From TPA_inf: Saccharomyces (taxonomy: Eukaryota): a stretch of 64,000 nucleotides of DNA. The position numbers and the translations under genes are program-made. Shown here one piece after another: positions 7,940-17,281 of this stretch. The notes beneath the pieces were generated by a model that saw nothing but the letters and a program-made list of their open reading frames with translations, was not told the DNA's origin and searched no databases. The stretch covers positions 128,001 to 192,000 of the forward strand of contig BK006947.3 of the NCBI GenBank assembly GCA_000146045.2, written 5' to 3'. Numbering within the stretch: the first letter of the stretch is position 1; each line of letters starts with the position of its first letter.

Positions 7940-9661
7940 TTATGAAAGGACATCCCAAACTCGTTGCCACCTTGTTTTACATTCTGGCTCTATCCATACC
8001 AACTCCTCTATTTGCCGGCGGTCAGAATCGATATCGATATCCTGCAGCTTCCAGAGTAAGCGGCACTTAAACCAAACTTGGAATGATAACCATATGGCCA
8101 AAAATAGGAATATTGATATATATGCAGCGACAAAGTCTATAGGCTGAAAAGTAGGTGCGAAAGCGGTGAAGCCCTGGATCAGAACAATTAGAGCGATGAA
8201 AAAAGATGCATAATATGCCAAAAAAGGCATCATTTGAGCTTTATAAGGTAAGTCATCCCTCGATATACCACGTTTCCTTATGGCTTGCATGAAACGGATA
8301 TGAGAAAATGAAATCAAAAGCCAGGCAAAGAAACCGGCCACACCAGTTATGTTCAATAACCAGTTAAAGGCCTTGCCGCTGCCTGCAGAAACCTCTAAGA
8401 AAGCCAAAAATCCGAACACGGATGTAGATAGAACAGAAAAGTATGGAACACCACCTCTGGTCACGTTAGACAAGAACCTTGGCGCCAAGCTATTTTTAGA
8501 CAGACTATACAGTACTCTTGAGCCAATGTACACATTAGAGTTACCTGCGGAAAGAATGGTGATTAGCACGACCGCGTTAAATATATCTGGGAGAACTTTT
8601 GTGCCTGAATTCTCAATGCTTATCATAAAGGGCGATGAAGAGACAAATATACCGTCACTATCCAACTTTGGGTCATTATATGGGACCAAAAGGCCAATGA
8701 AAAATAGTGAAAGAATGTAAAAGACTAGAATCCTCACTACAACTTTCTTTATTGCCCTCGGGAGAGCTTTTCTTGGGTTAGCCGCTTCACCAGCGGTTAT
8801 CCCAACCAGTTCAGTACCTTGGTACGTAAATGCAGCATTAATCAAAGAGGAAACCCATCCGAGAAAACGGCCCTCATTTTTATCACTGGAGATAATGCCA
8901 GGCCCCCAGGCTCCTGGATTTCTCCAGTACCTGAAACCGATGGGTCCATCAGATTGTCCCGCACCACACACAACACAGAATGAGAAAATGATAAAACCGA
9001 GCAACGCGATGACCTTTATGGAGGCAATACAAAACTCAAATTCTCCGTAATACTTTACGGGAAACATGTTCATTGAAGTTAACAGGCACCAAAAGATCAC
9101 GATCCAAGCCGCTAGAGGCACTGCTTCTGTCCAGTACTGAATAACTTTCCCCAAAACGGATAGTTCCAGTGCGAAGGTGAAACACCACGACAGCCAGTAC
9201 ATATATCCGTTAGTCGCTCCCAGCGCTGGCGACAGAAATCTTTGGGCGAAGACAGAAAATGAAGATGTAACCGGGATAAAAGTGACCATCTCTCCTAACG
9301 ATTGTGTAACGGAGTAAATCACTGTCCCCATAAATAAATACGATATCAAGGCACCAACAGGGCCGGCGTGTGCCAATGGCGGACCAATACCAATTATGAG
9401 GCCCGTCCCAATGGTGCCGCCGAGAGCAATCATCCCTATATGCCGCTGCTTTAACTTCCGCTTCACCTCTCTTCTTTCTTGTGGTGAGCTCTCTGTTTCC
9501 TTAGCAGCATCATCCTCGACTTTTCTCTCTGTGGTGATGGCCTTCGTAACGTTCTCCCCAGAATATTGTTCATCTACAAACTCCTCCTCTTTTATTATAG
9601 AGCTAGAATTGATTTCATACTGACCTTCCTTGGACATTTGTATGTTCACAGTTTCATCCAT
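7940..9661 (-). CDS. ALP1: Basic amino-acid (arginine) permease of the APC/YAT family, 573 aa, 12 TM helices
   Basis: 573-aa ORF with ATG start (cat 9659-9661). Permease signature [15 protein letters not shown]. Close paralog of the adjacent LYP1 and oriented divergently from it. Length and position next to BNI1 and LYP1 identify ALP1 rather than CAN1. Confidence 0.9.
8768..8940 (-). repeat. ALP1 copy of a ~173-nt near-identical segment shared with LYP1 (candidate gene-conversion tract)
   Basis: The reverse complement of 8768-8940 aligns to LYP1 11388-11559 with about 7 mismatches, while flanking coding sequence differs at most third-codon positions. Confidence 0.85.
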
Positions 9662-9698
9662 GGCAATAATCGCAACACTACAATTTTGCCGCTAATAT

Positions 9699-10094
9699 AT
9701 GTCTATTGTGCTACGGAAGAGTAACAAAAAAAACAAAAACTGCATAACAAGCAAGTTTTATACAATACACATTATAAAAATTTCTACTCCGGTGTTCCGA
9801 GCTCCCATTGCCATTGGAGAAAGCCCTTATGTGGAGTGGAGCTGCCTACAGGTTGTTTTCAGGAAAGACATGGTTACAAAAAAGACGACATTCGCCCAAC
9901 TTATCACTCGCTTGAACCACTTTTTATGCCAAGCCCTTAAACGCCGCGACTCAAAAACATACATACTGTGCCGCACGGCAGTTTTTGGCGCTATGACACC
10001 CTTTTCCCCAAGAAAATCGCATATTAACAACAAATTACCCATGCAACCCAGGAAAAAAAAAATAGTCATTATATACGTAGTGCGCTTTCATTGA
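9699..10094 (+). CDS. BSC4: BSC4, 131-aa S. cerevisiae-restricted de novo-originated ORF (bypass of stop codon 4); TGA stop in leaky TGA-C context
   Basis: ATG at 9699-9701 and ORF MSIVLRKSNKKNKN...VVRFH of 131 aa. It sits in the 888-bp gap between the divergent ALP1 and LYP1, exactly where YNL269W/BSC4 maps. Stop TGA at 10092-10094 is followed by C at 10095. The same frame stays open for 106 further codons to TAG at 10413-10415. Confidence 0.85.
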   Translation: MSIVLRKSNKKNKNCITSKFYTIHIIKISTPVFRAPIAIGESPYVEWSCLQVVFRKDMVTKKTTFAQLITRLNHFLCQALKRRDSKTYILCRTAVFGAMTPFSPRKSHINNKLPMQPRKKKIVIIYVVRFH

Positions 10095-10549
10095 CAACTA
10101 CATTTTTGTGCAACTTTTGGTACACCGCTACACGTATTGAAAGCGCAAAAGACTATAGCTCCTCCAGCAGGGAAAACTCACATCGGTGGGCAACAACATA
10201 GAATATGTCAAAGTTGTAAAAACACCCACGAGTGCATACCACTTTTCAACATTACCGGGGAAAAAAAAGTTTGCACCTCGTTCCCAGAAACATACGCAGG
10301 AGTGACTGCGCTAGTGACAGATTGCTCTTTCCGTTGGAAAAAGAAACGACTTTTTTTCGCAAAAGTACCCGAAATCCTCGGAATTTTGCAAATAGTCGAT
10401 GATCACAATTGTTAGGTGACTATTTAACAAGGACGGCGAGGAGAACTGAAAAAAAAGCAACCTATCCGGCCTCCTCTAGTTACACAAACAAGACAAAGAA
10501 ATTGCATTGTCTATAACGATAACAAAAGACATCGTATATATATATATAT

Positions 10550-12385
10550 ATGGGCAGGTTTAGTAACATAATAACGTCCAATAAATGGGACGAGAAACAA
10601 AACAACATTGGCGAACAGAGCATGCAGGAATTACCAGAAGACCAGATAGAACATGAGATGGAAGCAATAGATCCAAGTAATAAGACGACCCCATACTCTA
10701 TTGATGAGAAACAGTACAACACAAAAAAGAAGCATGGGTCATTGCAAGGTGGCGCAATTGCTGATGTAAATTCGATAACTAATTCGTTAACAAGATTGCA
10801 AGTTGTCTCTCATGAAACAGATATTAACGAGGATGAAGAAGAAGCCCACTATGAGGATAAACACGTGAAGAGAGCCTTGAAGCAAAGACACATTGGTATG
10901 ATTGCACTAGGTGGTACAATCGGTACTGGTCTTTTCGTTGGTATCTCCACTCCCTTGAGTAATGCTGGCCCTGTGGGGTCCCTGATTGCTTACATTTTCA
11001 TGGGCACCATTGTCTACTTCGTTACCCAGTCACTTGGTGAGATGGCTACGTTTATCCCCGTGACATCATCTATCACTGTCTTTTCGAAGAGGTTCTTATC
11101 ACCTGCATTCGGTGTTTCTAACGGCTACATGTACTGGTTCAATTGGGCTATTACTTATGCTGTGGAGGTTTCTGTCATTGGCCAAGTTATTGAATACTGG
11201 ACAGATAAAGTTCCATTAGCGGCCTGGATTGCGATATTCTGGGTAATTATTACTTTGATGAATTTTTTCCCTGTCAAAGTTTATGGTGAATTTGAGTTCT
11301 GGGTGGCCTCTGTTAAAGTTTTAGCCATTATGGGTTACTTGATATATGCTTTGATTATTGTCTGCGGTGGATCCCACCAGGGCCCTATCGGTTTCAGGTA
11401 CTGGAGAAATCCAGGAGCCTGGGGGCCAGGCATCATCTCCAGTGATAAAAGTGAAGGCCGTTTTCTCGGATGGGTCTCCTCCTTGATTAATGCTGCATTT
11501 ACGTACCAAGGTACTGAACTGGTTGGGATCACCGCTGGTGAAGCGGCTAACCCAAGAAAGACCGTTCCAAGAGCTATCAATAAAGTCGTCTTTAGAATCG
11601 TACTATTCTATATTATGTCTTTGTTCTTTATTGGTCTACTGGTTCCATACAACGATTCCCGTTTATCTGCTAGTTCTGCTGTTATTGCATCATCACCCTT
11701 CGTTATTTCCATTCAAAACGCTGGTACTTATGCTCTTCCAGATATTTTCAACGCCGTGGTGTTGATTACTGTTGTATCTGCCGCTAATTCGAATGTTTAC
11801 GTTGGTTCCCGTGTTCTTTACTCTTTAGCTAGGACTGGTAACGCACCAAAGCAATTTGGATACGTCACCAGACAGGGTGTTCCATATCTCGGTGTTGTTT
11901 GCACTGCTGCATTGGGTCTTTTGGCATTCCTGGTTGTCAATAACAATGCAAACACTGCATTTAACTGGTTGATCAACATTTCCACTTTGGCTGGGTTATG
12001 CGCCTGGTTATTCATCTCTTTGGCACATATTAGGTTCATGCAAGCTTTAAAGCACCGTGGTATTTCTCGTGATGATCTGCCCTTCAAGGCCAAATTGATG
12101 CCTTATGGTGCCTACTACGCAGCCTTTTTTGTCACCGTCATCATATTCATCCAAGGGTTCCAAGCGTTCTGTCCGTTCAAAGTTTCTGAGTTTTTCACAT
12201 CTTACATCTCCTTGATTCTTTTAGCCGTTGTGTTCATTGGTTGCCAGATATACTACAAATGCAGATTTATTTGGAAGCTAGAAGATATTGACATCGATTC
12301 CGACAGAAGAGAAATCGAAGCAATTATTTGGGAAGACGACGAGCCTAAGAATTTATGGGAGAAATTCTGGGCTGCTGTTGCATAG
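10550..12385 (+). CDS. LYP1: Lysine permease, APC/YAT family, 611 aa
   Basis: ATG at 10550 ([16 protein letters not shown]...). 611-aa ORF with 12 predicted TM segments and the [15 protein letters not shown] motif. Paralog of ALP1. Confidence 0.93.
11388..11559 (+). repeat. LYP1 copy of the ~172-nt segment ~96% identical to ALP1 8768-8940
   Basis: Encodes [57 protein letters not shown]. Synonymous sites are nearly identical to ALP1 only within this tract. Confidence 0.85.
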
Positions 12386-16279: not shown

Positions 16280-17281
16280 TTATTTTCTGCGTAAAGCGTC
16301 AAACCGTTTCTTCAACTCATCTAGTTCATCATTTTCTTGCTCCTTCTTAGTCTTTCTTTTTGTAGTTTTCTTTTCTGATTGTTTCTTTTCGATCACTTCC
16401 TTTTTGATATCTTTCGGAATCTTGAGCTCGTTCTTGATATTTTCACTATTCTGCCTAGGCTTTTTAACAGTGATAGGGTGTTTAGCATCTGCATTGTCAT
16501 TATCGTCATTATCTAAGGCTAAAATAGGCTTTTCTTCGTCATTATCCTCGATATCTCCCGAGGGGTCACTAAAGTCTGAAGAAATGTTAGAAGACGACGA
16601 AGATAAGGAATTCTCCAGCTTACTATATGGCACATCGTATGTTTTCGCGATTTCCTTCAAATAAAGATCAACTAGTTCTTCTTTTGGAACTGAGGGAGAG
16701 CATTTTTTTATAATCTTTTCAGGGACATCGATATGATCTGCTATTACTCCATTAACAAACTCAACGTTTATTTTCCAGGCCATCAAATCTTTCAATTGGC
16801 TAAGTTCTTTGACTTCATCAACGAAAAGAATCGCATAGATTAGGGATCTGATAGCTTCGTTAATACCATCATCCATATGCTCTTTGACAAGCTGTTCCTC
16901 GGTGGAGATATCGTTTATTACCTGCACTCTAGCCAGTAGTAATTCACAATATAGTTCCAATATCTCTAGTAGCTCAATATGAATATCGTCATGAATTAGC
17001 GTCTCCACACGATAATGCGCCTTCTGTTCTTTATTTGTCAGTAACAGTTGTGCAACCTGTCTTCGAGACTGCTTTGCAATCGCCTGTTGCTTTTCTTGAG
17101 CATATCTTAACCTTTGAATACACATTTTCAGGCATGTTTTAAGCTTGATCTATAACAATAATTTGGATGATAGTTTTACCCTTCTTCAGTTAGTACATCC
17201 TAGATCTTTTGCATACTAAAGCTTTTTAAAAATTACTATAAAATATAAACATACAGTGAACGGAATCATTGACGGAGCCAT
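16280..17281 (-). CDS. IST1: Ist1 (ESCRT-III-related MVB sorting factor), 298 aa. Spliced CDS: exon 1 17255..17281 (9 codons, MAPSMIPFT), intron 17150..17254, exon 2 16280..17149
   Basis: The track ORF begins at internal Met (MCIQRL...). Upstream on the minus strand there is a 3' AG, a TACTAAC branch point (plus gttagta 17189-17195), a 5' GTATGT (plus acatac 17249-17254) and an ATG at 17279-17281. Joining the exons gives MAPSMIPFT|IKLKTCLKMCIQRL..., totalling 298 aa. Confidence 0.88.
17150..17254 (-). other. IST1: Spliceosomal intron of IST1 (105 nt), 5'-proximal
   Basis: GTATGT 5' splice site, TACTAAC branch point and TATAG 3' splice site on the minus strand. Splicing restores the reading frame and the known N-terminus. 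Confidence 0.85.

Follow-up and report, generated by a model that had tools for sequence, protein, structure and literature searches.

The open reading frame (ORF) BSC4 (YNL269W) occupies the gap between the divergently transcribed permease genes ALP1 and LYP1 in a stretch of 64,000 nucleotides (nt) of Saccharomyces cerevisiae DNA (contig BK006947.3, positions 128,001 to 192,000; hereafter the window, to which all coordinates refer). Among full-length de novo protein-coding genes BSC4 is historically the first example, and the sequence around its stop codon is in standard use as a read-through reporter. Comparison of the locus within and between species indicates that BSC4 is probably a young and polymorphic proto-gene, confined to S. 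cerevisiae and seated in a bidirectional promoter, with an accidental leaky stop and an extension that would be an unselected by-product. The ORF and the extension are absent from the sister species, the ORF is polymorphic and the extension lacks constraint; we infer that the extension has no function.

The BSC4 frame was found to open with an ATG at 9699-9701 and to run through 131 sense codons, the last of which is CAT (His), to a TGA stop at 10092-10094. The +4 base is C and the next six nucleotides read CAA CTA. The stop falls into the CAR-NBA read-through class, in which CAR-NBA follows a stop codon that is ideally UGA-C, and the in-frame open extension that characterizes this class is present as well, with 106 codons. 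The elements concerned and the two flanking genes are the following.

9699..10094, plus strand: BSC4 (YNL269W) ORF, 131 codons plus TGA stop, by direct reading and by the cluster name Bsc4p/BSC4
10092..10100, plus strand: leaky termination signal TGA-CAA-CTA, consisting of the UGA-C tetranucleotide and the CAR-NBA hexanucleotide
10095..10415, plus strand: in-frame read-through extension, 106 sense codons (10095-10412) plus TAG (10413-10415)
7940..9661, minus strand: ALP1 (YNL270C), basic amino-acid permease, Pfam AA_permease at E = 3e-161, source name Alp1p
10550..12385, plus strand: LYP1 (YNL268W), lysine permease and ALP1 paralog, Pfam AA_permease, source name Lyp1p

Read-through would yield a product of 131 + 1 + 106 = 238 amino acids (aa), with the predicted junction peptide ...VVRFH-[W/C/R]-QLHFCATFGTPLHVLK. 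A separately listed ORF at 10137..10415 (TTG start, 92 aa) lies in the frame of the extension, since 10137 minus 10095 is 42. An earlier interpretation made from the DNA letters alone (the sequence-only reading) had described the 131-codon ORF without recognisable domain, its TGA-C stop, the 106-codon extension to the TAG, the ~238-aa product and the shared frame of the TTG-initiated ORF. All of these coordinates held on direct reading, the 42-nt offset accounts for the shared frame, and the 131-aa product had no Pfam match. The placement between divergent paralogs was borne out by the Pfam matches and source names of ALP1 and LYP1, which share 63% identity over 540 aa and are divergently oriented; a formin gene and a PI4-kinase gene flank the pair on the outside.

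A search of the 131-aa product against 5.8 billion protein clusters returned S. cerevisiae entries alone. The members of the main cluster, including ACB409xx, are 98-100% identical to it and are source-named Bsc4p or BSC4 [Saccharomyces cerevisiae], and the exact 131-aa sequence occurs in 314 indexed blocks of the assembly collection. Sequence match, cluster names and the location between ALP1 and LYP1 identify the locus as YNL269W/BSC4, as had been recognized from the letters alone. It shares locus, flanks, UGA-CAA-CUA stop and lengths with the published BSC4/YNL269W (Namy et al., 2003; Cai et al., 2008), from which its sequence does not differ. The stop that had been suspected to be leaky is the published BSC4 read-through element, UGA-C plus CAA-CUA (PMC4446449; 10.1101/2023.06.19.543857), and the lengths of coding sequence and extension have already been tabulated as 131/107 (PMC4999894). 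Earlier publications thus already cover the read-through and its CAA-CUA element, the 131/107 lengths and the claim of de novo origin, and there is no new biology here. Compared with the classic account the emphasis differs: the ORF is unfixed, the extension and the leaky motif look incidental, and the whole unit lies on the promoter DNA of two permeases.

The BNI1-ALP1-gap-LYP1-PIK1 locus was retrieved via the ALP1 orthologs from S. paradoxus, S. mikatae, S. kudriavzevii, S. arboricola, S. eubayanus and S. uvarum. Synteny was kept in all six species, and their gaps of 912-1,198 nt could be aligned with the 888-nt S. cerevisiae gap, with a DNA identity of ~74% to S. paradoxus. At the aligned start position no ATG was present in five of the six species, S. 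arboricola being the one that has it; S. paradoxus and S. mikatae read ATGTG there, where the ATG is shifted out of register by two bases. When compared as protein, the BSC4 frame was broken by frame switches and stops in 6/6 species. The extension frame ran into several stops in S. paradoxus and S. mikatae; in the other four species it could be aligned only as short fragments. An intact 131-codon frame or 106-codon extension was found in none of these six Saccharomyces species, and phmmer, run exhaustively against 1.84 billion representative proteins (E <= 0.001), recovered only three S. cerevisiae BSC4 alleles. BSC4 therefore shows two marks of a de novo gene, with no homolog outside the lineage and a syntenic outgroup sequence that is non-coding. 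In many yeasts that are more distant, the locus tags of ALP1 and LYP1 homologs are likewise adjacent or nearly so. The sequence-only reading had noted that the gene is reported to be S. cerevisiae-specific and derived from non-coding DNA in a syntenic gap, and had proposed aligning the gaps of the sister species. The six-species alignment, in which neither ORF nor extension is open outside S. cerevisiae, and the phmmer search both agree with it. Specificity in the sense that no homolog or open frame exists elsewhere stands, with the caveat that the ORF is unfixed in the species and its gene status contested.

Relative to S. paradoxus, all S. cerevisiae haplotypes share four deletions upstream of LYP1, of 11, 12, 22 and 10 nt (~10256, 10347, 10360 and 10403). 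Most of the other five species likewise have sequence at these four sites, and one of the deletions falls between two TTTTTTCGCAAAAG-like copies in S. paradoxus. Loss of these segments contributed to the opening of the extension frame and may have changed the regulation of LYP1. In S. kudriavzevii IFO 1802 (L004) the gap carries a species-specific insertion of ~310 nt at ~10164/10165, which starts with TGTTGGAAC... and resembles the start of a Ty long terminal repeat (LTR); on this resemblance the shared promoter may harbour a solo LTR there.

Within S. cerevisiae the frame is broken in many alleles. Allele comparison pointed to two homopolymers in the ORF as sites of length variation.

10053..10062, plus strand: A10 homopolymer (codons RKKKI), an insertion/deletion (indel) hotspot in the ORF
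9726..9733, plus strand: A8 homopolymer (KKNK) in the N-terminal part of the ORF, length-variable among haplotypes

In the A9 allele (P0002, 18 member sequences) the ORF stops at a TAG after 121 aa, so that TGA-CAA-CTA is no longer in frame. The divergent haplotypes, four in number (source names CDA, HN1, BDH and SX2), contain several frame-breaking indels (among them +2 at ~9944, -2 at ~10001, -1 at 10032, poly-A changes, +2 at ~10102, -1 at ~10160 and +15 at ~10232, as well as a +1 change). Their annotated ORFs are 123 or 89 aa long, and none combines 131 aa with an in-frame 106-codon extension. An extra A at ~10032 is confined to the reference-like alleles and is missing from the divergent alleles and from S. 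paradoxus, so that it represents a derived, ORF-enabling change. The full arrangement with 106 open codons was present in 8/8 reference-type loci; these carry little weight and are not independent, because they were picked by exact 131-aa identity and are nearly identical in DNA. Given the A9 allele and the frame-broken haplotypes, BSC4 is not a fixed ORF of S. cerevisiae. According to a preprint, 49/94 and 504/1,011 strains have it intact; the authors describe homopolymer frameshifts and propose that BSC4 be classed as "dubious" (PMC12157680).

The same haplotypes (CDA, HN1, BDH and SX2; L009, L010-L012, L013 and L014) were deeply divergent over 9800-11500. Their intergenic divergence was 5-8%, with a peak of 14% in 10000-10200, and the 5' part of LYP1 differed by 3.5-6% in the CDA and BDH alleles. 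ALP1 was only ~1-1.5% divergent in CDA, HN1 and BDH, with a sharp boundary near 9700-9800; SX2 was an exception, with ~3% divergence in its ALP1 part. For scale, S. cerevisiae and S. paradoxus differ by 12% in ALP1, 10% in LYP1 and 26% in the intergenic region. Such haplotype divergence far exceeds the usual level within a species; a long-standing balanced polymorphism could explain it, as could introgression from a lineage that has not been sampled.

To assess selective constraint, each unique variant site within the species was classified against a null with matching mutation types, and the other two frames served as controls. In the ORF, 22/52 variants were synonymous (14.3 +/- 3.1 expected, P ~0.01), compared with 11 in each of the other two frames, and no variant introduced a new stop into the ORF frame (1.7 expected). 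The extension showed no synonymous excess (10/47 variants against 12.4 expected) and one new stop among its within-species variants. Divergence from S. paradoxus was equal in the ORF (0.274), the extension (0.271) and the downstream spacer (0.264), without a coding signature. As judged from these variants, the BSC4 ORF may be under weak constraint at most, and the extension is neither conserved nor constrained as coding sequence. Conservation of the extension and its stop context as coding sequence, by which functional read-through would be recognized, was found neither in the sister species, nor in the divergent haplotypes, nor in the synonymous test.

The alignment of the seven Saccharomyces gaps revealed conserved elements beneath both the ORF and the extension.

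9756..9762, minus strand: candidate ALP1 TATA box TATAAAA, ~95-101 nt upstream of the ALP1 ATG and within BSC4 codons 20-22, of putative function
9871..9882, strand not assigned: conserved non-coding block TGGTTACAAAAA within the ORF, identical in at least 6/7 species
10336..10377, strand not assigned: conserved block cluster within the extension (GGAAAAAGAAAC, TTTTTCG and CGAAATCC), probable LYP1 upstream regulatory elements
10421..10434, plus strand: conserved block TATTTAACAAGGAC, probable LYP1 TATA element, identical per base in at least 6/7 species

The plus-strand form of the candidate ALP1 element is TTTTATA, and the surrounding ATATAC block is alignable across species. TATTTAACAAGGAC lies 129 nt upstream of the LYP1 ATG and 6 nt past the TAG of the extension. 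Across the gap, conservation is highest in the second half of the extension, from where it continues into TATTTAACAAGGAC. Interspecies indels between these blocks are not multiples of three, and conserved blocks with such indels therefore fit cis-regulatory DNA and not coding sequence. The gap also contains five runs of a single base, each 7-10 nt long, of which four are A and one is T; such homopolymers are typical of yeast promoter regions. From the position and conservation of these elements, ORF and extension together appear to span the bidirectional ALP1-LYP1 promoter. The extension would then be the LYP1 promoter read in one frame, and therefore an unselected by-product.

The leaky context was traced in the same alignments. 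At the aligned stop site S. paradoxus reads TAA-CAA-CTG. Within S. cerevisiae, TGA-CAA-CTA was present in five haplotypes (reference, L008, L009, L010 and L013) whatever frame leads into it, and a search for this pattern gave no match in the SX2 haplotype (L014). With TAA-CAA-CTG in S. paradoxus and an occurrence that does not depend on frame, the context was therefore not built by selection for BSC4 read-through; by this comparison of aligned sites, the leaky motif is older than the ORF. UGA-C is known to terminate poorly, and CAR-NBA past the stop raises read-through further; the CAA-CUA hexanucleotide of BSC4 supports robust, eIF3-dependent read-through in reporters (PMC4446449; 10.1101/2023.06.19.543857). 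Decoding at UGA is by the near-cognate tRNAs for Trp and Cys, with a wobble mismatch (PMC4446449). BSC4 read-through is described as increased in [PSI+] and dependent on Sup35 in three papers that cite Namy et al. (2003) (PMC5559586, PMC4973966, PMC9544372).

Other members of the CAR-NBA / CAR-YYA class are tobacco mosaic virus (TMV; UAG-CAA-UUA), yeast PDE2 (UGA-CAA-GAA) and IMP3. The CAA-CUA of BSC4 fits this consensus and is one base apart from the TMV hexanucleotide, and the decoding is common to BSC4 and the class, by near-cognate tRNA promoted by eIF3 (PMC4446449). In TMV, and as reported in PDE2, the extended product or the level of read-through has a demonstrated role, whereas the BSC4 extension is unconserved, unconstrained and often out of frame.

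We propose that point mutations and small indels in the ALP1-LYP1 bidirectional promoter built the young BSC4 ORF, which would now be a haplotype state, present in reference-like alleles, broken in others and weakly constrained at most. Its stop would have come to fall in the strongest known yeast read-through context, UGA-C plus CAA-CUA, an older non-coding sequence that the new ORF would have met by chance. At the UGA some ribosomes would take a near-cognate tRNA (Trp or Cys, with a wobble mismatch), aided by eIF3 and, according to the literature, more often in [PSI+] or upon Sup35 depletion. Those ribosomes would run through 106 codons to the UAG at 10413 and release the 238-aa product.

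The combination of this stop with a long open extension exceeds chance only modestly. For an open run of 106 codons behind a given stop, a first-order Markov model of the intergenic region gave a probability of ~0.002, and calculation from the stop-trinucleotide frequency observed in that region gave ~0.03. In the window, 3/29 ATG-initiated ORFs of at least 120 aa were followed by an in-frame open run of at least 100 codons. The stop-CAR-NBA 9-mer occurred 35 times in the window, which agrees with an arithmetic estimate of its chance rate. In the orthologous gaps, stop-to-stop open runs of 81-120 codons were present on the same strand in 6/6 other Saccharomyces species, and ATG-initiated ORFs unrelated to BSC4 lay on the BSC4 strand in S. 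paradoxus (85 aa), S. mikatae (93 aa) and S. eubayanus (114 aa). What sets S. cerevisiae apart is that runs of 132 and 106 codons abut in one frame and that the lone stop between them fits the read-through consensus, a coincidence that we estimate to occur about once per genome or less.

Open tails of similar length were seen elsewhere in the window. The run after ORF 8349-8720 (plus strand), which lies antisense within ALP1, has 109 codons, and that after ORF 16280-17125 (minus strand) has 105 and, from its coordinates, appears to reach into the 3' end of the PIK1 coding sequence on the opposite strand. Both show that an in-frame open tail of such length is no rarity. The ALP1-LYP1 gap likewise readily yields BSC4-sized, non-homologous ORFs in other species, and the 93-aa ORF of S. 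mikatae (L003 3452-3733, minus strand) has been annotated as a gene by a gene caller.

Structure prediction with AlphaFold2 in single-sequence mode gave the 131-aa protein a mean predicted local distance difference test score (pLDDT) of 41.6, with one predicted helix at residues 65-83; residues 61-83 are largely invariant across alleles. The 238-aa product had a mean pLDDT of 32.8, with ~25-32 in the extension and no confident fold. As weak, model-based evidence, the low pLDDT agrees with the published description of BSC4 as a 'molten globule'. This description and the compact oligomers formed by the recombinant protein are attributed to Bungard 2017 in PMC9233646. The extension had no match in protein databases. 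A candidate SBP zinc-binding domain in the extension (residues 28-61, 10176-10277, Cys/His-rich HRICQSCKNTHEC...) was rejected, with E = 0.007 and 17 bits against a cut-off of 27 bits, and is most likely a chance match.

Several observations weigh against a translated BSC4. Start or poly(A) sites that fit BSC4 are reported to be absent, with transcripts mainly from the opposite strand and 38 nt between the ORF and ALP1 (PMC12157680). In the window, 37 nt lie between the ATG of BSC4 and that of ALP1, the BSC4 start codon has T at -3, and in-frame upstream ATGs at 9642 and 9660 would precede it if the 5' untranslated region exceeded ~38 nt. Because of the missing transcript ends, the 37-nt spacing, the T at -3 and the upstream ATGs, the ORF may be no gene. 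The synonymous excess is small, with P ~0.01 in six tests, and is derived from a small sample that includes frame-broken alleles. The literature searched contained no ribosome-profiling or proteomic support for read-through on the native mRNA, and no direct evidence for a native BSC4 mRNA reaching 10415 or for the 238-aa product in cells. We consider it possible, if rather unlikely, that BSC4 is wholly non-coding: a chance open frame in an A-rich, stop-poor bidirectional promoter, with deletion phenotypes that stem from promoter damage and read-through that is a property of a 9-nt reporter motif. Such a reading would account for the strain counts, the unfitting transcript ends and the 38 nt to ALP1 (49/94 and 504/1,011; PMC12157680), the frame-breaking homopolymer indels in the alleles examined, the open runs of 81-120 codons and ORFs of 85, 93 and 114 aa in the sister gaps, the overlap of the ORF with conserved promoter blocks and the ALP1 TATA-like element, and the poor start context with its in-frame upstream ATGs. 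It would also fit the equal S. paradoxus divergence of ORF, extension and spacer (0.274, 0.271 and 0.264), the lack of a confident fold (pLDDT 41.6), an expression below 15 transcripts per million (PMC7841160) and a synthetic lethality that perhaps comes from another deleted feature and whose cause has been called unclear (PMC9233646). However, the synonymous excess is specific to the ORF frame (22 against 14.3 expected, P ~0.01), and no new stop arose in that frame among 52 variants where 1.7 were expected. Moreover, secondary sources credit Cai et al. (2008) with detecting transcripts, induced in stationary phase, and Namy et al. (2003) with taking the ORF as translated (PMC9544372; expression also via PMC9233646), and the compact oligomers of the recombinant protein (Bungard 2017, as related in PMC9233646) also speak for a protein.

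A programmed, functional read-through, with a selected 238-aa isoform that acts through its basic RWKKKR motif or its Cys/His-rich stretch and is tuned by [PSI+] or stress, appears improbable. The perfect CAR-NBA context after UGA-C would suit it, but the motif is older than the ORF. The open extension is long, and all 106 codons are open in the eight reference-type loci, yet these loci were chosen by exact 131-aa identity and are near-identical in DNA, the extension is frameshifted in the divergent haplotypes and out of frame in the 121-aa allele, and it is closed in all sister species. A dependence on Sup35 and [PSI+] has been reported (PMC5559586, PMC4973966) and a motif resembling a nuclear localization signal has been listed in the extension (PMC4999894); against this, the extension has no synonymous excess (10/47 against 12.4) and one new stop, and where it is conserved it consists of DNA blocks whose indels are of lengths other than multiples of three and which run into the LYP1 TATA-like element. 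The weak SBP zinc-binding-domain match (E = 0.007) is below threshold, at 17 against 27 bits, and the pLDDT of the extension is ~25-32. It is similarly doubtful that UGA-CAA-CUA is a snapshot of a de novo gene in the course of lengthening, with an extension that already confers a conditional phenotype in in-frame strains. If so, [PSI+]-boosted read-through would expose 106 residues encoded by the LYP1 promoter to selection, and loss of the stop could fix a 238-aa protein. A preprint has instead argued that BSC4 is not of de novo origin and is a highly diverged fragment of the VPS38 C-terminus, left after fission or duplication, based on 27% identity in a gapped Vps38 alignment and on functional links (10.1101/2023.05.28.542624). 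We regard this as very improbable: the phmmer search over 1.84 billion representatives found neither Vps38 nor any other family at E <= 0.001, the locus is alignable orthologous non-coding DNA in six sister species, and ALP1 and LYP1 homologs are adjacent or near-adjacent by locus tag in many distant yeasts. The preprint itself rates BSC4 as its most marginal case (10.1101/2023.05.28.542624), and its relaxed BLAST parameters have been criticised (PMC12684174).

A proto-gene with an accidental leaky stop is therefore a better view of BSC4 than a model of programmed read-through, with the cautions that the ORF is polymorphic and sits atop two promoters, that the motif is older and that the extension bears no sign of selection. 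BSC4 resembles other yeast proto-genes and de novo ORFs in divergent promoters (e.g., MDF1; PMC7841160) in being young, homolog-less, lowly expressed (below 15 transcripts per million; PMC7841160) and without a stable predicted fold, as well as polymorphic and divergently oriented beside a pre-existing promoter. Unlike them it is unusually long, is annotated as a named gene and is the sole one with a stop that matches a strong read-through motif. Phenotypes of BSC4 deletions need to be interpreted with care, as deletion of the ORF would probably also remove promoter DNA of ALP1 and LYP1.

An Rfam scan of 9300-10900 at E <= 1 gave three matches resembling small nucleolar RNAs, all well under their gathering scores, which were rejected. 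Some S. cerevisiae ALP1 alleles (YJM1447 and BMC) clustered at 90% identity not with the main S. cerevisiae cluster (P0082) but with the orthologs of S. kudriavzevii, S. paradoxus, S. mikatae, S. arboricola, S. eubayanus and S. uvarum (P0155), and this clustering suggests divergent or introgressed ALP1 alleles in some strains. At the other end of the gap, a (TA)n microsatellite at 10535-10551 abuts the start codon of LYP1 (…TATATATATATG). Its length differs between S. cerevisiae strains, and the other Saccharomyces species do not have it.

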